Shown in pieces: positions 1 through 20,935 of a stretch of 64,000 nt of DNA. The position numbers and the translations under genes were made by a program. The notes under the pieces are model-generated. The model was not told the origin of the DNA and did not search any database. It saw only the letters and a list, made by a program, of their open reading frames with translations. How positions within the stretch are numbered: position 1 is the stretch's first letter; every line of letters starts with the position of its first letter. This DNA is from Escherichia coli (lineage in GTDB: Bacteria; Pseudomonadota; Gammaproteobacteria; Enterobacterales; Enterobacteriaceae). Location: assembly GCF_003334385.1 (NCBI RefSeq), contig NZ_QOWN01000009.1; one strand, 5' to 3'.

Positions 1-2771
1 CACATGCTGAGGGTGCTGTCCGGGTGCAGCTCCGGGTCGGGCAGGCGGTTACCTGCCGGGTCTGTGGCATACGGGATGCGGATATCCAGATTCGCTGCGG
101 TGGTGTGAACGCCGGTCAGCCTGCCGGTGGTGCTGTAGCTGTAACTCCGGGTCTGGCGCGGGCTGCTGATGCGGATGAGTTCGCCGTTGTCGTTCCAGGT
201 GTAATCGCGGTCAGACAGCAGGCTGTTCAGGTGCTGGCTCTGTAACTGCCCGGCAGGGGTATAAGCGGTGGTGAGTTCATAACGGCCGAAGCTGCGCAGC
301 GTTTCCCGGTGCAGGCGGTCGCGGGTGTACTCCACCAGCGGTGTGTCGCCGAGTTTCATGCCTGCCAGGTAACCGCTGCCGTAGGTCAGCCATTCCACGG
401 CGGGCAGGCTGTCCGGTATACAGCGGTTCGCCAGCCCCTGCGCGTTGTACGCATGTCTGGTCTCATGCTGCCAGAGCAGTGCTTCCGTCTGCGGGTGATG
501 CACCGTCTGACGCTCACCGGTCAGCCGGCCTTTCTCATCATACCTGTAATGCACCGCCACCCGGTGCCCTTCGCTGATATGGCTGATGTCTGTCAGCCAG
601 CCACGTTCGTCATACTGCCACCGCTCTGCGGTTTCACCCTTCACGGTGCGGTGCGTGAGGCGGTCTGCTTCGTCATAGTGCCAGTGGGTGACCAGACCCT
701 CATCCTCGCTGCGGATAAGTTTGCCGGTCAGGTCGTGGTGATAACGCTGTGTGCGGCCGTCAAAGCCGGTTTCCTGTATCAGCCGGTCAAGTACATCGTA
801 ACGGAAGGTGGTGTGGCTGCCGTTTTCACTGGTCAGGCGGATGACCCGTCCGGCAGCATCGTATTCCATACTGCGCGTCAGCCCGCCCTGCGTGGTACGG
901 ACGGCCTTTCCCCACGCATCGTACTGTGTCCCGTTTCTGCTGCCGTCCGGGGCAATGACGGCGGTCAGGTCACCGGCGATGTTGTATTCATACCGCGTTT
1001 CATGGCCCTGCGTGTCTTTCACGGCAATTAACTGTCCACGGCTGTCGTATGCGCGGTACTGACTCAGCCCTTCCTCGCGGTGCACCGCCGTCATCTGCCC
1101 GAAGCGGTCATGGTCATAACGGGTTACATAACCGGAACAGTCGGTGAAGCTCAGCAACTGACCGTAACGGCTCCACGTCATGGTTTTCCGGCTGCCGGTG
1201 GCATCTTCCGTTGCGCAGGGTAAGTCACTGTGTGGATTATCATAACGGTAGCGGGTGATATCGCCGTCAGGGGCAGTTTCCTGAATCAGACGGCCCAATT
1301 CATCATATTCCCGGCGCAATTCCAGCCCGTCAGGCCCGGTGGCTGACGTTAACTGGTTGTGGTGGTTATAGTAAAACGCCGATGCCCTGCCATCCGGCGT
1401 GGTTATGCGCGTGATGAGGCCCGTCACCACATCCGGGCTGTACTCTGTTGTCCTGCCTGCGGCATCCGTCTGTGCCCTGAGCCTGCCCACGGCGTCAAAC
1501 TGACTCTGCGTGACGCTGCCGTCCGCGTGTTCCTTTTTCACCACCCGCTTCAGCCCGGCTTCGCCCTGCGTGTGCAGGACTTCACGGCGGTTCAGGCTGT
1601 CGGTGATGGTGATGCGGTCCTTCTCATACTGATACGTGTAACTTAAGCCTGCCGGGTTTAGCTGTTCTGTCACCCGCCCGTCGCTGTCGTAACGGTAACA
1701 GATTTCCGGTCGGCCCGTGTGACGGTGCGCCACCATCCGGCCCCGGTATTTATCATCGTAAGTAAAGCTGCGCACCTGTGTATTGCTGCGGTCATACACC
1801 GCCGCCAGTTCGCCGCGGGGCGTCCAGCCATAGCGCACCAGCGGCGCGGCAGGTAAATTCTCCGGGTATTCCGGGTCGTGCGTCAGCCACACGGCAGACA
1901 GACGGATGCCGTTGTCCCGGCCATATTCGGTGTAACCCGGCAGGGTATCAGGAAAAGCGGACGGTTCCGTCCCGCCGGAAATGGCCTGCTGCCGGGCTTC
2001 TTCTGCCCGCTGCGCCTGCGTGGTCAGTACCAGCCGGAAGTGACGCCAGGCACCATCCGTCACGCCGGTGATTTCGCCGCTGAATTCACCGGCGGCTTCG
2101 CGGTGGAACGTCTGTGTGCGCCCGAAGCGGTCCACCAGCCCGGTCAGTACCCGGTACGGCGGCAGCGGCGCAGGCAGCACCTCATCCGCTTCCGGCACCC
2201 GCTCACACCAACCGAGCAGCCACCACGGCCCCTGCGGACTGTTTGTCGCCAGATAACGATGCGGACTTAAGCGGAGTTCTTCCGGCAGCGCCTGCCAGAG
2301 TGCGGCCAGCCGGTGACCTTCATCCAGTTTCGCCACGCCGCCGCGCACCAGCCACAGTGACTCGCTGCGGCTGTAACCGTCCTCACCGGGAAACAGGTGC
2401 TCAAAATACAGGCTTCTGCCGCCGTTATCACTGAGTATCAGTGTGTTATCGCGCAGCTGTAAGCGGATATCCGCAGGCATTTTCCAGCCGGGGCCGAGGC
2501 TCCCCACCGGCGCGGGCGTTTTTGTCCGGTAACTGCTGTAGGTGCGGGAGAGGATGAACGGCAGCGGGCCGGGCAGGGCGATGTCGGTTTCACCGGGAAG
2601 GACCTTTGCACCGAGCAGGGGATTGACCGGATGGCCGGACGTCACTCCGCCGGGGCACACCGAACAGGCCACGCCGGTGGGGGCACCAATACGTACCCCG
2701 GCTGAACCCTGAACAATGCTACCGCCATACTGCGTCATGTCACCCTGACGCGCCGCCGGTTTTCCGCTCAT
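1..2771 (-). CDS. rhsB: Rhs-family polymorphic toxin core protein, N-terminal part only (runs off the window start)
   Basis: Hand translation of the minus strand from the ATG at 2771..2769 gives MSGKPAARQGDMTQYGGSIVQGSAGVRIGAP..., the conserved Rhs N-terminus. No minus-strand ORF with an in-window stop is listed for 1..2771, consistent with one long frame leaving the window. Position directly downstream of nikR matches rhsB in E. coli. Confidence 0.75.
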   Translation of the reverse strand, partial: MSGKPAARQGDMTQYGGSIVQGSAGVRIGAPTGVACSVCPGGVTSGHPVNPLLGAKVLPGETDIALPGPLPFILSRTYSSYRTKTPAPVGSLGPGWKMPADIRLQLRDNTLILSDNGGRSLYFEHLFPGEDGYSRSESLWLVRGGVAKLDEGHRLAALWQALPEELRLSPHRYLATNSPQGPWWLLGWCERVPEADEVLPAPLPPYRVLTGLVDRFGRTQTFHREAAGEFSGEITGVTDGAWRHFRLVLTTQAQRAEEARQQAISGGTEPSAFPDTLPGYTEYGRDNGIRLSAVWLTHDPEYPENLPAAPLVRYGWTPRGELAAVYDRSNTQVRSFTYDDKYRGRMVAHRHTGRPEICYRYDSDGRVTEQLNPAGLSYTYQYEKDRITITDSLNRREVLHTQGEAGLKRVVKKEHADGSVTQSQFDAVGRLRAQTDAAGRTTEYSPDVVTGLITRITTPDGRASAFYYNHHNQLTSATGPDGLELRREYDELGRLIQETAPDGDITRYRYDNPHSDLPCATEDATGSRKTMTWSRYGQLLSFTDCSGYVTRYDHDRFGQMTAVHREEGLSQYRAYDSRGQLIAVKDTQGHETRYEYNIAGDLTAVIAPDGSRNGTQYDAWGKAVRTTQGGLTRSMEYDAAGRVIRLTSENGSHTTFRYDVLDRLIQETGFDGRTQRYHHDLTGKLIRSEDEGLVTHWHYDEADRLTHRTVKGETAERWQYDERGWLTDISHISEGHRVAVHYRYDEKGRLTGERQTVHHPQTEALLWQHETRHAYNAQGLANRCIPDSLPAVEWLTYGSGYLAGMKLGDTPLVEYTRDRLHRETLRSFGRYELTTAYTPAGQLQSQHLNSLLSDRDYTWNDNGELIRISSPRQTRSYSYSTTGRLTGVHTTAANLDIRIPYATDPAGNRLPDPELHPDSTLSM

Positions 2772-2973: not shown

Positions 2974-5777
<2,804 letters not shown>

Positions 5778-5781
<4 letters not shown>

Positions 5782-11447: not shown

Positions 11448-11450
11448 AAC

Positions 11451-13313: not shown

Positions 13314-15512
13314 TTATCTCCTGCGCAACAATCTTAACGCATTCGCTGTCACCAGCACCGTCGCCCCCGTATCTGCCAGCACTGCCAGCCACAACCCGGT
13401 CATCCCTAACAGCGTGGTGACGAGGAAGATCCCTTTCAGCCCCAGCGCAATAGTGATGTTCTGGCGGATATTGGCGTGAGTGGCGCGTGCCAGTTCAATC
13501 ATTTGCACCAGGCCGCGCAGGTGGTTATGGGTTAATGCTGCGTCGGCGGTTTCCAGCGCCACGTCTGTGCCGCTACCCATTGCAATCCCGATGGCGGCAG
13601 CTTTCATCGCTGGCGCGTCGTTAATACCGTCACCGACCATCGCCAGCGGCGCATGTTGATTCAGCTCGGTCACCGCTTTGACTTTATCTTCCGGCAACAG
13701 GCCCGCTTTAAACTCCAGCCCCAGCTCCCCGGCAATTGCCGCCGCTGCGCGTGGATTATCGCCGGTGAGGATCACCCCTTTGACGCCCAGCGCGTTCAGT
13801 TCACTGATGGCAGTTGCAGCATCGGCGCGCAGGGTATCCTGTAACGCAATGACACCAAGCACGTCATCGTTACGTACTACCAGCACTACCGTTTGCCCGG
13901 CGCTTTCCAGTTCGTTAATTAAACCAGTAAATGCATCAGCGGGATGTTTCCCGGCAGCGCAAATCAATACGCGCTCACCGTTAACCTGCGCTTCAATGCC
14001 AGACCCGACCAGCGCCCGCTGTGATTCGGCGGTGGGAATGGCGAGTTCAGCAACCTGTGCTTCGCGTACGATGGCTTGCGCCAGTGGATGCGTCGCGCCT
14101 TGCTCGACCGCCGCCGCCAGTGTCAGCAGTTCAGATTCACTAATACCCGTTGCCGGATGAATCGCGGTAACGCGCGGTTTACCGACGGTCAGCGTACCGG
14201 TTTTATCAAACGCCACCTGAGTAACACGACCCAGCTGTTCCAGCGCCGCTCCGCCTTTAATCAACGCCCCACGACGCGCTGCCGCCGCCAGCCCGGAGGT
14301 AATCGCCGCAGGCGTTGAGATAACTAACGCACACGGGCAGCCAATCAGCAGCAGCGTCAGCCCTTTATAAATCCACTCCTGCCAGCTGGCGGCAAACAGC
14401 AGCGGTGGCACCAGCGTCACCAGCAGAGCGACGGCCATAATCGCGGGCGTATAGATACGGCTGAAACGGTCGATAAACCGCTCAATGGGAGCGCGACGCT
14501 CTTCGGCTTCTTCGATCAGTTTCAGAATCCGGTCAATGGCGCTGGCTCCCGGTTCTGACAGCACTTCCAACGTCACCAGACGGTCTACGCTGGTGGCACC
14601 AGCAGGGACTTTATCGCCCGTTGCGCGCTCCACCGGAATGGATTCGCCGGTCAGGGCGCTTTCATCAAAACTGGCAAACGGTGAGAGCAGTTTACCGTCG
14701 GCAGGCAAACGCCCACCTGCGGCGACTTCAATCACATCGCCAGGGCGCAGGCTGTTAATCGCCACCTCTTCCCGCTCACCCTTACGCAGGCGCGTGGCGG
14801 TTTCTGGTTTCAGCGCCATTAACGCGCTAACGCCCTGACGCGCGCGGCTGGCGGCCCAGCCTTCCAGTCGTTCACCAATCAAAAACAGCAGCAACACCAT
14901 CGCAGCTTCAGCCGTTGCGCCAATAAACAGTGCACCAATAGCGGCTACGCTCATTAAGGTTTCAATGGCGAAGTAGCTGCCGGATTTGATCAACCGTAAT
15001 GCCTGACGAGCAATCGGGTACAGCCCAACCAGCGTGGTCGCGATAAACGCCAGTTGCCCGAACGGATGATTGAACTGCTCCAGACCCCAGCTGATTGCCA
15101 TCATCACGATTAGCGTAATCAGCGGCAGATTCTCTTTCAGGCGTGATGCTTGCGGTTCTTCGGCGGCCTGTTCATCGCGCAGGGAATAGCCTGCTTTTTG
15201 CAGCGCAGATTCAACTTGTGCACGAATGTCATTGTCGGCATCGACCACCAGTTTTTCGGTGGCGAACAACACCTGCACCTGATTCACGCCTGCAAGCTGG
15301 CGCACGGCATTTTCTACCTTGCGCGCACAGGCGGCGCAGTCCATGCCGCTGACTTTCCAGCTATAGCGGGTGCCGGAGACGTTTTCAGAGAGAGTTGGCG
15401 TGCTGGAACATGCGCCGTCGCAGCAACAGTCGTTGGCGTTCTGTACCGTGGTTAGCGGTTTGAACGCAGCAAATTGAGGGGCTTTCTTGCCGTGATTGTC
15501 AGGAGTCGACAT
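13314..15512 (-). CDS. zntA: Zn/Cd/Pb-exporting P1B-type ATPase ZntA
   Basis: 732 aa ORF with N-terminal metal-binding GMDCAAC, CPC transmembrane motif (IGCPCALVISTP), DKTGTLT phosphorylation site and GDGINDAPA. Confidence 0.96.
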   Translation of the reverse strand: MSTPDNHGKKAPQFAAFKPLTTVQNANDCCCDGACSSTPTLSENVSGTRYSWKVSGMDCAACARKVENAVRQLAGVNQVQVLFATEKLVVDADNDIRAQVESALQKAGYSLRDEQAAEEPQASRLKENLPLITLIVMMAISWGLEQFNHPFGQLAFIATTLVGLYPIARQALRLIKSGSYFAIETLMSVAAIGALFIGATAEAAMVLLLFLIGERLEGWAASRARQGVSALMALKPETATRLRKGEREEVAINSLRPGDVIEVAAGGRLPADGKLLSPFASFDESALTGESIPVERATGDKVPAGATSVDRLVTLEVLSEPGASAIDRILKLIEEAEERRAPIERFIDRFSRIYTPAIMAVALLVTLVPPLLFAASWQEWIYKGLTLLLIGCPCALVISTPAAITSGLAAAARRGALIKGGAALEQLGRVTQVAFDKTGTLTVGKPRVTAIHPATGISESELLTLAAAVEQGATHPLAQAIVREAQVAELAIPTAESQRALVGSGIEAQVNGERVLICAAGKHPADAFTGLINELESAGQTVVLVVRNDDVLGVIALQDTLRADAATAISELNALGVKGVILTGDNPRAAAAIAGELGLEFKAGLLPEDKVKAVTELNQHAPLAMVGDGINDAPAMKAAAIGIAMGSGTDVALETADAALTHNHLRGLVQMIELARATHANIRQNITIALGLKGIFLVTTLLGMTGLWLAVLADTGATVLVTANALRLLRRR

Positions 15513-15549
15513 GGCATCCTCCGGTTAAGTTTTTTCTCATTAACCGAAG

Positions 15550-15580
15550 GATACACTCTGGAGTCGACTCCAGAGTCAAG
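15550..15580 (-). promoter_or_regulatory. zntA promoter with ZntR (MerR-family) operator: perfect 22-bp palindrome in the spacer
   Basis: Plus-strand actctggagtcgactccagagt at 15555..15576 is a perfect inverted repeat; on the minus strand it directly follows a TTGACT -35 hexamer, as in the known PzntA. Confidence 0.8.
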
Positions 15581-15585
15581 TTTTA

Positions 15586-16212
15586 TCAGAGATACAGCGA
15601 GCGGACGATCAGGAAGTGACCGGCAAAGTAGCAGGCCGCAGCAATCGCGTTATCCGCACGGAAGCGTCGGCGATAGTGGCTCCCCAGCCAGACAAAGTTA
15701 CTGATAAACAGCAACGAAGCGCCAACAAACGCAGAGAGCGCCGGAGCGGTCGGACGGAAGAACCACAGTTCACCTGCCAGCCACACCATCACCAGCGTCA
15801 TGCCGATAAACGTGCAGATAGGCCAACGGTACTCTTCCAGGCGCGTCCAGATAATCGCCAGTAACAGCGCACCCAGAACCAGCAGCACCAGTGGTAGAGG
15901 CCAGAAGAAAGAGAGCGTCATCTGACTGGCGAAATAGATGGTGTACAGCAGGTGCGAGAGGAAAAACGCGCCGATGGCGTACATCAGACGTTGACGTGGC
16001 AACAGGGTTAGCGCATCGCCCAGCAGTGAGGCGCACAGCCCTGCCAGCACCAGATAGCTAATGGCGTCGAACATCGGCGCTTGCCAGGCCAGTAACAGCA
16101 GGAGAAGAAGGGTTAACGGTTTAAACACCCAGCGTTGCCAGGTTGGCCCACGATACGATGCATCCACAGATAGCCATGCGGAAAGACAGACAGCGATAAA
16201 CGACCAAAGCAT
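15586..16212 (-). CDS. yhhN: YhhN-family integral membrane protein
   Basis: 208 aa hydrophobic [31 protein letters not shown]...; synteny. Confidence 0.85.
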
Positions 16213-16352
16213 CTTAGTTCCTTGAATTCGTTATTTTTTCGTAAGCGGAATGCCTACGGTCTTGCTTCCAGTTTAGTGGCGAGGGTGGACGGATGACAAC
16301 ACCATAACTGGCAGGGTATGCTTATTTCCGCATTTTCCGATGAGGGATAAAG

Positions 16353-16712
16353 ATGAGCAAACCACCTCTTTTCTTTATTGTTATCATTGGCTTAATTGTC
16401 GTCGCCGCATCGTTTCGTTTTATGCAACAGCGACGGGAAAAAGCTGATAATGATATGGCTCCGCTCCAGCAAAAGCTGGTGGTGGTGAGCAACAAGCGGG
16501 AAAAACCGATTAACGATCGCCGTTCGCGCCAGCAGGAAGTGACTCCGGCAGGCACCAGTATACGCTATGAGGCAAGCTTCAAACCGCAAAGCGGAGGAAT
16601 GGAGCAGACGTTTCGCCTCGACGCCCAGCAGTACCACGCCCTGACAGTGGGCGATAAAGGTACGCTGAGCTATAAAGGAACGCGCTTTGTCAGCTTTGTA
16701 GGCGAACAATAA
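16353..16712 (+). CDS. yhhM: Small membrane-anchored protein YhhM (DUF2500-like)
   Basis: 119 aa ORF with one N-terminal TM helix; divergent from yhhN. Confidence 0.8.
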   Translation: MSKPPLFFIVIIGLIVVAASFRFMQQRREKADNDMAPLQQKLVVVSNKREKPINDRRSRQQEVTPAGTSIRYEASFKPQSGGMEQTFRLDAQQYHALTVGDKGTLSYKGTRFVSFVGEQ

Positions 16713-16714
16713 GG

Positions 16715-16984
16715 TTATTTTTTAACTTTAAATTTCTTCTGCCAGGCCAGCAGTTCAAACACGCCGAAAAGGAAAATCCGTACCTTTTCGGCGGTGGTCA
16801 TCTGCGGGCCATCTTTCGGTAAAGTGGATTTCAATAGCGCCAGCTGCATACCATGCATCAGCACGGTAAAAATCAGCGCCACGTTAACGAAGATATTCAG
16901 CGGGCGTGGGAAGGGATGCACCAGGTTGAGGATTAAAAATCCCCAAACGCAGAGCATTAACAAACGACCAATATTAATCAGCAT
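16715..16984 (-). CDS. yhhL: Small inner-membrane protein YhhL
   Basis: Track ORF 16715..17107 trimmed to the internal MLINIGRLLMLCVWGFLILNL... (89 aa); overlaps the rsmD 3' end by 11 nt. Confidence 0.75.
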   Translation of the reverse strand: MLINIGRLLMLCVWGFLILNLVHPFPRPLNIFVNVALIFTVLMHGMQLALLKSTLPKDGPQMTTAEKVRIFLFGVFELLAWQKKFKVKK

Positions 16985-17570
16985 CACTTTCTCCTTGTGC
17001 TTCGCGTTGATACAGCCGATAAGCCACCTGACCCGCCACTTTTTCCCGATGTAATGACCAGTTTGCTGGAACAGTGGGCAGACCGTTTTCGACTTCGCTT
17101 TCGACATAAATCAGGGCTTCGTCAGCCAGCCAGCCGTTATCTTCCAGTAAATTTATCGTCTCTTCTAACAAGCCACGGCGGAACGGTGGATCGACAAACA
17201 CGATATTATGCGGTGTACCTTTTTGCGCCAGGAATGACATCGCGTTGCTGTTCACCACGCGTGCATTGCCTGCTTTTAGTGTCGCCAGATTCTTAATTAA
17301 CTGCTGAGAAACCGCGCGATCCATCTCAATCAACGTTGCCCCCGCAGCGTAGCGCGATAACGCTTCCAGCCCCAGCGCGCCGCTCCCGGCGAAGCAATCC
17401 AGACATTGGGCGTCAACAATGACCGGAGCCAGCCAGTTAAACAACGTTTCGCGTACGCGGTCGGTGGTGGGGCGCAGACCTGGGCTATCAGGAACCGGGA
17501 GTTTACGGCCTCGCCACTGCCCGCCAATAATGCGGATTTGGCCGCTGCCGGAATGATTCGGTTTTTTCAT
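16974..17570 (-). CDS. rsmD: 16S rRNA m2G966 methyltransferase RsmD
   Basis: 198 aa ORF with SAM-binding LDCFAGSGALGLEALSR and DPPF motif. Confidence 0.93.
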   Translation of the reverse strand: MKKPNHSGSGQIRIIGGQWRGRKLPVPDSPGLRPTTDRVRETLFNWLAPVIVDAQCLDCFAGSGALGLEALSRYAAGATLIEMDRAVSQQLIKNLATLKAGNARVVNSNAMSFLAQKGTPHNIVFVDPPFRRGLLEETINLLEDNGWLADEALIYVESEVENGLPTVPANWSLHREKVAGQVAYRLYQREAQGESDAD

Positions 17571-17719
17571 GATAAATTGCTCAATCCGCCAGATAACACA
17601 TACTTGCAGGCGGTGATGTGAATTAAGTTAAGTGATAGACTATTTCATCATTTTTTTAGCTGCTATGTACATAGCGTTAACGCTGTGCCATGAAGCAACA
17701 GCGAGGAGTGTAGTCGCAA

Positions 17720-19213
17720 ATGGCGAAAGAAAAAAAACGTGGCTTTTTTTCCTGGCTGGGCTTTGGTCAAAAAGAGCAGACCCCGGAAAAAGAGACAGAA
17801 GTTCAGAATGAACAACCGGTTGTAGAAGAAATCGTTCAGGCGCAAGAGCCTGTGAAGGCCTCTGAACAAGCCGTTGAAGAGCAGCCGCAAGCGCATACTG
17901 AAGCCGAGGCGGAAACTTTTGCTGCCGACGTTGTGGAAGTCACTGAACAGGTTGCTGAAAGTGAAAAAGCGCAGCCTGAAGCGGAAGTCGTTGCACAGCC
18001 GGAACCGGTCGTAGAAGAAACGCCGGAGCCAGTGGCTATCGAACGTGAAGAGCTGCCGTTGCCGGAAGACGTCAACGCCGAAGCGGTTTCGCCAGAAGAG
18101 TGGCAGGCTGAAGCGGAAACCGTAGAGATTGTCGAAGCGGCGGAAGAAGAAGCGGCTAAAGAAGAAATTACCGACGAAGAGCTGGAAACGGCGCTGGCTG
18201 CCGAAGCGGCAGAAGAGGCGGTGATGGTGGTTCCTCCGGCAGAAGAAGAGCAGCCGGTGGAAGAAATCGCTCAGGAGCAGGAAAAACCGACCAAAGAAGG
18301 TTTTTTCGCGCGCCTGAAACGCAGCCTGTTAAAAACCAAAGAAAATCTCGGTTCCGGATTTATCAGCCTGTTCCGCGGTAAAAAAATCGACGATGATCTG
18401 TTTGAGGAGCTGGAAGAGCAGCTTTTGATCGCCGATGTGGGTGTGGAAACCACACGTAAAATTATCACCAATCTGACGGAAGGCGCATCCCGCAAGCAGC
18501 TTCGTGACGCCGAGGCGCTCTATGGCCTGCTGAAAGAAGAGATGGGCGAGATTCTGGCGAAAGTCGATGAGCCGCTGAATGTTGAAGGCAAAGCGCCGTT
18601 TGTGATCCTGATGGTGGGCGTCAACGGTGTGGGTAAAACCACGACGATTGGTAAGCTGGCGCGTCAGTTTGAGCAGCAGGGTAAATCGGTGATGCTGGCG
18701 GCGGGTGATACTTTCCGTGCAGCTGCGGTTGAACAGCTTCAGGTCTGGGGTCAGCGCAACAATATTCCGGTGATTGCCCAGCATACCGGGGCGGATTCCG
18801 CCTCTGTTATCTTCGACGCCATTCAGGCAGCTAAAGCGCGTAATATCGACGTCCTGATTGCCGATACAGCCGGACGCCTGCAGAACAAATCGCACCTGAT
18901 GGAAGAGTTGAAGAAAATCGTCCGCGTGATGAAGAAACTCGACGTTGAAGCGCCGCATGAAGTTATGCTGACTATTGATGCCAGCACCGGGCAGAACGCG
19001 GTAAGCCAGGCCAAACTGTTCCATGAAGCCGTTGGCTTAACCGGCATCACGCTAACGAAACTGGACGGCACGGCGAAAGGCGGGGTAATTTTCTCGGTGG
19101 CTGACCAGTTTGGTATCCCTATCCGCTACATTGGTGTCGGCGAACGTATTGAGGATTTGCGTCCGTTTAAGGCGGACGACTTTATAGAGGCACTTTTTGC
19201 CCGAGAGGATTAA
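17720..19213 (+). CDS. ftsY: Signal recognition particle receptor FtsY
   Basis: 497 aa ORF: acidic low-complexity N-terminal domain, then SRP GTPase domain (GVNGVGKTTTIGKLA, DTAGR). Confidence 0.96.
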   Translation: MAKEKKRGFFSWLGFGQKEQTPEKETEVQNEQPVVEEIVQAQEPVKASEQAVEEQPQAHTEAEAETFAADVVEVTEQVAESEKAQPEAEVVAQPEPVVEETPEPVAIEREELPLPEDVNAEAVSPEEWQAEAETVEIVEAAEEEAAKEEITDEELETALAAEAAEEAVMVVPPAEEEQPVEEIAQEQEKPTKEGFFARLKRSLLKTKENLGSGFISLFRGKKIDDDLFEELEEQLLIADVGVETTRKIITNLTEGASRKQLRDAEALYGLLKEEMGEILAKVDEPLNVEGKAPFVILMVGVNGVGKTTTIGKLARQFEQQGKSVMLAAGDTFRAAAVEQLQVWGQRNNIPVIAQHTGADSASVIFDAIQAAKARNIDVLIADTAGRLQNKSHLMEELKKIVRVMKKLDVEAPHEVMLTIDASTGQNAVSQAKLFHEAVGLTGITLTKLDGTAKGGVIFSVADQFGIPIRYIGVGERIEDLRPFKADDFIEALFARED

Positions 19214-19215
19214 CA

Positions 19216-19884
19216 ATGATTCGCTTTGAACATGTCAGCAAGGCTTATCTCGGTGGGAGACAGGCGCTGCAGGGCGTTACGTTCCATATGCAGCCGGGTG
19301 AGATGGCGTTTCTGACCGGTCATTCCGGCGCAGGGAAAAGTACCCTCCTGAAGCTGATCTGTGGGATTGAGCGGCCCAGCGCCGGGAAAATCTGGTTTAG
19401 CGGCCATGACATCACGCGTCTGAAAAACCGTGAAGTTCCGTTTCTGCGCCGCCAGATTGGCATGATTTTCCAGGATCACCATCTACTGATGGACCGTACT
19501 GTCTACGATAACGTGGCGATCCCGCTGATTATCGCCGGTGCCAGCGGTGACGATATTCGTCGCCGGGTGTCGGCGGCGCTGGATAAAGTCGGGCTACTGG
19601 ACAAAGCGAAGAACTTCCCTATTCAGCTTTCGGGCGGTGAACAACAGCGTGTTGGCATTGCCCGCGCGGTGGTGAACAAGCCCGCGGTACTGCTGGCGGA
19701 CGAACCGACTGGTAACCTGGACGACGCGCTGTCGGAAGGCATTTTACGTCTGTTTGAAGAGTTTAACCGCGTTGGGGTAACCGTATTGATGGCAACGCAC
19801 GACATCAACCTGATCTCGCGGCGTTCCTATCGCATGCTCACCCTGAGCGATGGTCACTTGCATGGAGGCGTGGGCCATGAATAA
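19216..19884 (+). CDS. ftsE: Cell-division ABC transporter ATP-binding protein FtsE
   Basis: 222 aa ORF with Walker [10 protein letters not shown] and signature LSGGEQQRV; ftsYEX operon. Confidence 0.96.
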
Positions 19885-20935
19885 GCGCGATGCAATCAAT
19901 CATATTCGGCAGTTTGGCGGGCGTCTTGATCGCTTCCGTAAATCGGTCGGCGGCTCAGGCGACGGCGGTCGTAACGCACCAAAACGCGCGAAATCCTCGC
20001 CAAAACCGGTAAATCGCAAAACCAACGTTTTCAACGAACAGGTGCGCTATGCCTTCCACGGCGCATTGCAGGATCTGAAAAGCAAACCGTTCGCCACGTT
20101 TTTAACGGTGATGGTTATCGCCATTTCTCTGACGCTGCCCAGCGTCTGTTATATGGTGTACAAAAACGTTAACCAGGCGGCGACGCAGTATTATCCGTCA
20201 CCGCAAATCACTGTTTATCTGCAAAAAACGCTGGACGATGACGCTGCTGCGGGCGTGGTGGCACAGTTGCAGGCCGAGCAAGGCGTGGAGAAAGTGAACT
20301 ATCTTTCTCGTGAAGACGCACTGGGTGAGTTCCGTAACTGGTCTGGTTTTGGTGGTGCGCTGGATATGCTGGAAGAAAACCCGCTTCCGGCAGTGGCGGT
20401 GGTGATCCCGAAACTCGATTTCCAGGGGACGGAATCACTGAATACGCTGCGTGATCGTATCACGCAGATTAACGGCATTGACGAAGTGCGGATGGATGAC
20501 AGCTGGTTTGCCCGTCTGGCGGCGTTGACCGGGCTGGTCGGGCGCGTTTCGGCGATGATCGGCGTGTTGATGGTGGCGGCCGTGTTCCTCGTCATCGGTA
20601 ACAGTGTGCGTCTGAGTATCTTTGCTCGCCGTGACTCCATTAACGTACAGAAACTGATTGGTGCGACAGATGGATTCATCCTGCGCCCGTTCCTGTATGG
20701 TGGCGCACTGCTGGGATTTTCTGGCGCATTGTTGTCATTAATTTTGTCAGAAATTCTGGTGCTGCGATTGTCATCGGCGGTTGCGGAAGTGGCACAGGTT
20801 TTCGGAACGAAGTTTGATATCAATGGCTTATCATTCGATGAATGCCTGCTATTGCTGCTGGTATGCTCGATGATTGGCTGGGTGGCAGCGTGGCTTGCCA
20901 CGGTACAACATTTACGCCACTTTACGCCTGAATAA
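19877..20935 (+). CDS. ftsX: Cell-division ABC transporter permease-like protein FtsX
   Basis: Track ORF 19850..20935 trimmed to [15 protein letters not shown]... (352 aa); 8-nt overlap with ftsE. Confidence 0.93.

Follow-up and report, generated by a model that had tools for sequence, protein, structure and literature searches.

The 64,000-nucleotide stretch of Escherichia coli DNA analyzed here (contig NZ_QOWN01000009.1 of assembly GCF_003334385.1; hereafter the window) is the chromosome segment running from rhsB to rtcB and is near-identical to that of K-12. The RefSeq annotation of MG1655 was transferred to window coordinates, and a start codon, a stop codon and an open frame were found in every mapped CDS with the exception of rtcR. 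The gene order begins with rhsB, nikREDCBA, acpT, yhhT, yhhS, dcrB, yhhQ, tusA, zntA, yhhN, yhhM, yhhL, and rsmD, continues with ftsYEX, rpoH, livJ, panM, livKHMGF, ugpBAECQ, yhhA, ggt, yrhB, yrhD, yrhA, and yhhZ, and ends with yhhY, yhhX, yhhW, gntRKU, yhgN, asd, glgBXCAP, glpD, glpEGR, rtcR, and rtcB. The junction on which we focus lies between rsmD and yhhL. The rsmD gene (16974..17570, minus strand; ORF list, RefSeq and NF008157) encodes the 16S rRNA m2G966 methyltransferase of 198 amino acids and ends in a TAA at 16974..16976. Its product matches NF008157 over the full length (401.3 bits, cut-off 302) and TIGR00095 with 264.4 bits (cut-off 117.5). The yhhL gene (16715..16984, minus strand; RefSeq and NF008158) encodes an inner-membrane DUF1145 protein of 89 amino acids, homologues of which carry Pfam PF06611, and opens with an ATG at 16982..16984. 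As read from the sequence, the two coding regions share 11 nt, ATGCTGATTAA, at 16974..16984 (minus strand).

Positions 14000-20000 are 100% identical to K-12 MG1655, and the first 35 kb of the window differ from it by 24 substitutions and no indels. The 14000-20000 segment, including the rsmD/yhhL junction, was found in 5426 of 5426 complete E. coli genomes, and the 11-nt overlap is annotated identically in the most divergent complete genome of the species. Of the 24 substitutions, 14 fall within about 240 bp of rhsB (1578..1818), a clustering that suggests a recombination patch between Rhs copies; the 3-kb query has matches at a median of 5 sites in each genome. In MG1655, yrhA is interrupted by an IS1 copy that the window lacks (777-bp offset; ~37.7-38.2 kb, yrhA at 37654..38148), which leaves the yhhZ-yrhA pair whole, as it is in NCTC86 and many other strains. 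The window comes from a close relative of K-12 and not from K-12 itself. In rtcR (minus strand), a 10-bp deletion relative to MG1655 (GTTCCGGCGA, at 61930/61931) causes a frameshift, and the ORF is split into fragments at 61321..61929 and 61599..62909. These 10 bp are present in every full-length match among those listed (best 91% identity; 5426 complete E. coli genomes searched), so the deletion looks private to this sequence, or else an assembly error; the sole match of at least 99% identity to this region among those listed is partial. An Rfam scan of the window returned the RyhB small RNA as its only family match (RF00057, 83 bits; 40199..40263, plus strand, between yhhY and yhhX) and a tRNA scan of the window returned none, so that neither scan gave a match at or near the rsmD/yhhL junction.

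Start/stop overlaps in the window

Among the 39 same-strand neighbour pairs of the window, 13 overlap, by 4 nt in eight cases, 1 nt in three, 8 nt in one and 11 nt in one. An earlier note on this DNA had listed overlapping genes and attributed them to ordinary operon compaction. All 13 pairs were found at their annotated coordinates with none extra, the lengths agree wherever the note gave them, and the overlaps are indeed standard junctions of E. coli operons. On the minus strand, the nik operon contributes four of them, namely nikD/nikE (4 nt, ATGA, 4184..4187), nikC/nikD (1 nt, TAATG, 4948), nikB/nikC (4 nt, GTGA, 5778..5781) and nikA/nikB (1 nt, TAATG, 6722). The same strand carries rsmD/yhhL and yhhZ/yrhA (4 nt, ATGATGA, 38145..38148). 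On the plus strand, overlaps were observed for ftsE/ftsX (8 nt, ATGAATAA, 19877..19884), livH/livM (4 nt, 26483..26486), livM/livG (4 nt, 27757..27760), ugpA/ugpE (4 nt, 31936..31939), ugpC/ugpQ (4 nt, 33850..33853), glgB/glgX (4 nt, 49867..49870) and glgC/glgA (1 nt, TAATG, 53153). All of these coordinates are those of the RefSeq annotation. Five more pairs on the same strand are 1-5 nt apart. Some starts in the window are not ATG: nikC begins with a GTG that sits inside the nikB stop (GTGA), gntK with TTG (43594) and gntU with GTG (44125), the latter 3 nt past the gntK stop.

The downstream starts were compared with curated NCBIfam models, and 8 of the 10 overlapping downstream proteins checked match from the first residue. 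Specifically, NikE matches NF007739 from residue 1 and LivM its family profile from residue 1, while the full alignments pair residues 1-277 of NikC with positions 1-277 of NF007738, 1-314 of NikB with 1-314, 1-255 of LivG with 1-255, 1-281 of UgpE with 1-281, 1-657 of GlgX with 1-657, and residues 1-246 of UgpQ with positions 4-250 of a 251-position profile. The models for NikD and FtsX are shorter than the proteins and are uninformative on start position. Of the 21 junctions within -20..+20 nt, 11 have a distance of precisely -4 or -1 (binomial p = 8e-9 if the 33 possible distances were equally likely), a pattern beyond chance. Distances of -8..+6 occur in 17 of the 39 pairs of the window versus 707 of 2987 (24%) genome-wide in E. 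coli, the latter figure being taken from PMC10666635 (p = 0.005). Close junctions are 4.5-fold enriched for subunits of heteromeric complexes (PMC10666635), and the excess fits the ABC-transporter and FtsEX operon content of the window. In the same study, co-directional genes are most often found at distances of -4, -1 and -8, and its supplement tabulates K-12 distances of -11 for rsmD-yhhL, -8 for ftsE-ftsX and +2 for ftsY-ftsE. The overlaps are thus real, ordinary and already catalogued in E. coli.

One of the pairs, yhhZ/yrhA, had been called a toxin/immunity pair in the earlier note. YhhZ carries an N-terminal Hcp (TssD) domain (TIGR03344, 118 bits, cut-off 58.9; PF05638, E = 2.5e-11) and, at residues 322-343, no more than a weak HNH match (E = 0.013); YrhA matches the YrhA family NF038335, a family without assigned function. 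The label is plausible, and the pair is a candidate.

Convergent, tail-to-tail overlaps are also present outside the earlier list, at ugpQ/yhhA (14 nt, 34580..34593) and glpR/rtcR (19 nt, 61321..61339), and two convergent pairs nearly abut, yhhM and yhhL with a gap of 2 nt (16713..16714) and yhhS and dcrB with a gap of 3 nt (11448..11450). A scan of the yhhM-yhhL-rsmD region (16300..17750) gave no terminator-like site between yhhM and yhhL; given this and the tiny gap, transcripts must enter the opposite gene. Three of these pairs (yhhM-yhhL, yhhS-dcrB and yhhA-ugpQ) are on a published list of candidate excludons (PMC12288877).

The rsmD/yhhL junction and the yhhL start codon

On the minus strand, the flagged site reads AAGGAG-AAAGTG-ATGCTGATTAA. 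Translation of this site (CAAGGAGAAAGTGATGCTGATTAAT, minus strand) gives Q G E S D A D stop in the rsmD frame and M L I N in the yhhL frame, and the rsmD stop is made from yhhL codons 3-4 (Ile3-Asn4, ATT AAT). The Shine-Dalgarno (SD) motif of yhhL, AAGGAG (16991..16996, minus strand), lies within the rsmD codons Q-G-E, 6 nt before the ATG. The last seven codons of rsmD cover the ribosome-binding site of yhhL as well as its first 11 nt.

The earlier note had pointed out that the length of this overlap hinges on which yhhL start is correct. We aligned the orthologues and looked for any that backed a different start; they back 16984 instead, and both the ATG at 16982..16984 and the 11 nt stand. 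The comparison comprised the window and 80 loci from different enterobacterial species (81 junctions). Across about 20 genera, YhhL orthologues are 88-96 amino acids long, and their N-termini line up at MLIN or two residues ahead of it. An ATG serves as the start codon in 80 of the 81 junctions and a GTG in one, at MLIN or two codons before it. An SD motif, AAGGAG in most, precedes the start by 6-10 nt in all 81, and by 6-8 nt in all except two Chimaeribacter loci. In Kosakonia, Enterobacter, Cedecea and others, the longer MPxLIN and MSVLIN N-termini come with six additional bases, the ATG having shifted together with the SD. In addition, YhhL of the window matches the NF008158 equivalog end to end (residues 1-89 on positions 1-89 of 89; 173.4 bits, cut-off 118), and distant DUF1145 proteins of 28-51% identity align to it from their own residues 1-7. 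By comparative sequence analysis, the yhhL start may be regarded as settled at the ATG at 16982..16984, giving a protein of 89 amino acids. Sergiev et al. 2012 (PMC3384335) had noted that yhhL partially overlaps rsmD and proposed the pair for experimental study, without an analysis of the start codon or of the evolution of the junction, both of which are given here.

Searches of published resources were also made. Neither yhhL nor rsmD is present in the TRAINSPOTTER N-terminomics supplements, yhhL appears in the INRI-seq supplements only among antisense off-target sites, and no functional or start-site data were found in the literature mentioning yhhL.

Variation of the junction among relatives

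The spacing between the rsmD stop and the yhhL start takes several values among the 81 enterobacterial junctions: -11 in 47, -17 in 12, -7 in two, -1 in eight, 0 or +1 in two, and +10 or +11 in ten. Overlap is thus found in 69 of the 81. The -17 form belongs to Kosakonia and Enterobacter, and the -7 form, anchored on the C-terminal motif of RsmD, to Pseudescherichia. In the +10/+11 forms, RsmD is shorter by six or seven residues, and the stop of its gene (TAA or TGA) either takes the first SD bases or lies one base before them. Buttiauxella, some Citrobacter and some Cedecea (TAAGGAG...ATG) have rsmD/yhhL junctions of the kind described as the +10/11 peak in PMC10666635; in the window, by comparison, that rsmD stop is lost and the frame continues for seven codons into yhhL.

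Two of the 13 overlaps are listed members of the phase-1 class of PMC10666635, namely rsmD/yhhL (-11, and -17 in Kosakonia and Enterobacter) and ftsE/ftsX (-8). According to that study, long overlaps of the -8/-11/-14 phase are more often retained than their counterparts in the other phase, and they persist because a single mutation cannot shorten them to -4 or -1.

Free variation is seen in the RsmD tail overlapping yhhL (DAD, DVD, HAD, NAD, DAN and others) but not in the YhhL N-terminus, which indicates that the overlapping bases are constrained by yhhL; from this comparison, the C-terminal tail of RsmD looks dispensable. The Ile3 codon was considered as a sign of constraint from the rsmD stop and rejected, since ATT is found in 78 of the 81 loci but is equally dominant in lineages without the overlap. 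Taken together, the junction drifts among -17, -11, -7, -1 and stop-in-SD (+10/+11) forms while the ribosome-binding site and the start stay fixed.

Gene order is more constant than distance. A DUF1145 gene follows rsmD in 80 of 80 enterobacterial loci, and for seven of seven distant DUF1145 representatives the gene immediately upstream belongs to the RsmD family (PF03602), the spacings being -11, -4, -1, +9, +17, +35 and +75 nt. All DUF1145 genes examined, from 100% to 28% identity to YhhL, are accordingly placed directly downstream of an RsmD-family gene at -17 to +75 nt. As judged from these loci, the gene pair is kept across the sampled range of the family and the overlap is not. The DUF1145 family itself is small, with 89 cluster representatives at 50% identity.

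Ribosome-binding site and transcription signals

The SD/anti-SD duplex of yhhL (-8.5 kcal/mol) is among the strongest in the window, and the predicted cost of opening positions -15..+5 (3.8 kcal/mol) is among the lowest. Accessibility was computed with a thermodynamic model of 90-106-nt fragments, and the ribosome-binding site of yhhL is predicted to be both strong and open. Shuffled sequences fold at least as well as the 106-nt junction region (z = +1.46). This value and the low opening cost led us to reject a structure masking the yhhL site, as assumed in the "unfolding" model of coupling. Over the window as a whole, the overlapping junctions (n = 13) were compared with the other starts, and neither SD strength (p = 0.09) nor accessibility (p = 0.17) differed significantly. 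A consensus scan of the minus strand returned no promoter-like or terminator-like site between rsmD and yhhL, and an internal yhhL promoter inside rsmD was discarded on the same scan. The yhhL SD is located within the rsmD coding sequence, and the motif is kept across genera.

Possible translational coupling and alternative interpretations

The earlier note had taken the overlaps to indicate translational coupling. That interpretation is supported in part; for these 13 pairs the move from overlap to coupling is an inference, and a literature search found no published coupling test for any of them. In reporter assays, four of five native E. coli pairs at -4 were coupled, and removal of the SD cut re-initiation in four of the five (PMC6728339). 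Distances of -8..+10 are treated as the range predictive of re-initiation (PMC10666635), and coupling efficiency falls as the overlap grows beyond -4 (PMC12548453). The coupled pairs hyfH-hyfI, astD-astB, ydbH-ynbE and menD-menH (Huber et al. 2019, 2023) resemble the junctions described here in that the downstream start overlaps the upstream stop and the SD lies inside the upstream gene; none of the 13 pairs of the window is among those tested in these studies. Twelve of the 13 fall within the distance range of Huber et al., -8 to about +10 (-4 in eight, -1 in three, -8 in one). In contrast, rsmD/yhhL, a rarer long phase-1 overlap, lies just outside it at -11. By analogy, coupling is plausible for the other 12 pairs; for rsmD/yhhL, the predicted site would make it plausible but not required.

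The reading that we favor, with considerable confidence, is that rsmD and yhhL form a two-gene unit in which yhhL is translated from the ATG at 16982..16984 by way of its SD and coupling is partial, the other 12 being standard compact junctions. Both genes would be read from one mRNA, and yhhL would be initiated through the SD at a strong, accessible site. The initiating ribosomes could be fresh ones or ones that have just terminated rsmD 8 nt downstream and been recaptured by the SD; because either is possible, any coupling between rsmD and yhhL would be partial and not obligatory. The remaining overlaps (-4, -1 and -8) are the usual compact junctions within the nik, fts, liv, ugp, glg and yhhZ-yrhA operons, and for overlaps of this class experiments on other E. 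coli pairs have demonstrated coupling.

Obligatory termination-reinitiation would go further: yhhL would be translated only by ribosomes that finish rsmD and slide back 8-11 nt, and the overlap would have been selected to fix the RsmD:YhhL ratio. On the one hand, the coupled reporters and the effect of SD removal (PMC6728339), the overlap in most enterobacterial junctions, and the rsmD-DUF1145 order of every locus examined all speak for such a mechanism. On the other hand, efficiency drops at overlaps longer than -4 (PMC12548453), -11 is outside the predictive range, and the yhhL SD is strong in a site predicted to be unstructured. The ten enterobacterial species in which rsmD stops within the SD or immediately ahead of it also argue against it, as do distant relatives whose genes stand +17, +35 and +75 nt apart, spacings at which re-initiation is weak or absent. 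According to PMC10666635, the ribosome profiling of RRF-depleted cells by Saito et al. 2020 is likewise read as pointing to a dominance of de novo initiation. The strong open site, the -11 distance and these cautions from the literature make obligatory coupling of rsmD and yhhL the less likely reading, and we consider it rather unlikely. A functional extension of the tight junction is more doubtful still: it seems improbable that YhhL is a dedicated functional partner of RsmD, serving as a membrane tether or regulating late 30S maturation, and that the junction is there for co-translation of the two.

Both readings take the 11-nt overlap as given. It would be wrong if yhhL started at the GTG at 16987 (14-nt overlap), at the ATG at 17107 (134-nt overlap) or at Met10 (no overlap). 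Each of these codons has something in its favor, since the GTG adjoins the ATG in E. coli, Met10 is invariant, and the mechanical ORF (130 amino acids, 16715..17107) extends to an upstream ATG at 17105..17107 on the minus strand, in line with some automatic public gene calls of 113-156 amino acids. The longest form is contradicted by about 20 species in which a stop closes the yhhL frame 18-63 nt ahead of the conserved ATG and no ATG, GTG or TTG lies between; the position of the upstream in-frame stop, and with it the length of the extension, varies even among Escherichia genomes. Met10 is excluded by the residues before it: L2, N4, G6 and R7 are invariant in the 81 loci while their synonymous codons vary (all four GGN for G6, six codons for R7). 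Codons 2-9 are thus under purifying selection at the protein level, translation must begin upstream of residue 2, and no SD precedes Met10. The GTG (16985..16987, minus strand), one codon before the ATG, is an unlikely start because the SD is only 3 nt away and the codon is not conserved, being found in Escherichia, two Kluyvera loci and one Buttiauxella locus, with GCG, ACG, AAC, AGC and others in the remaining genera. Salmonella and a few others have ATGATG at this position, so that a minor 90-amino-acid form of YhhL is formally conceivable, in which case the overlap would become 14 nt and still be present. The end-to-end match to the curated 89-position NF008158 model points the same way. 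A start elsewhere is thus already largely refuted, and we give it very little weight.

Several public "YhhL" calls are over-long, at 254 (with the YhhL part from residue 171), 153 and 156 amino acids, and are probably over-extended starts or frameshifted assemblies fused to RsmD.

Finally, although gene callers err on start codons and the SD motifs at nikB, ugpQ and yrhA are weak, we attach next to no credence to the overlaps being annotation artefacts or chance juxtapositions without biological meaning, given the excess of junctions at -4 or -1, the downstream proteins that match curated profiles from residue 1, the same K-12 distances tabulated independently (PMC10666635 supplement) and the conservation of the rsmD/yhhL junction across genera.

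Significance of the junction

These results confirm the annotated yhhL start and the 11-nt overlap, which in itself matters little, and the list in the earlier note accurately describes what are standard operon junctions of a well-studied genome. Since the rsmD/yhhL overlap was already listed, the present addition is only the cross-species history of the junction. The constant order of rsmD and its DUF1145 neighbour in the sampled loci lends support to the earlier proposal to study the pair functionally.
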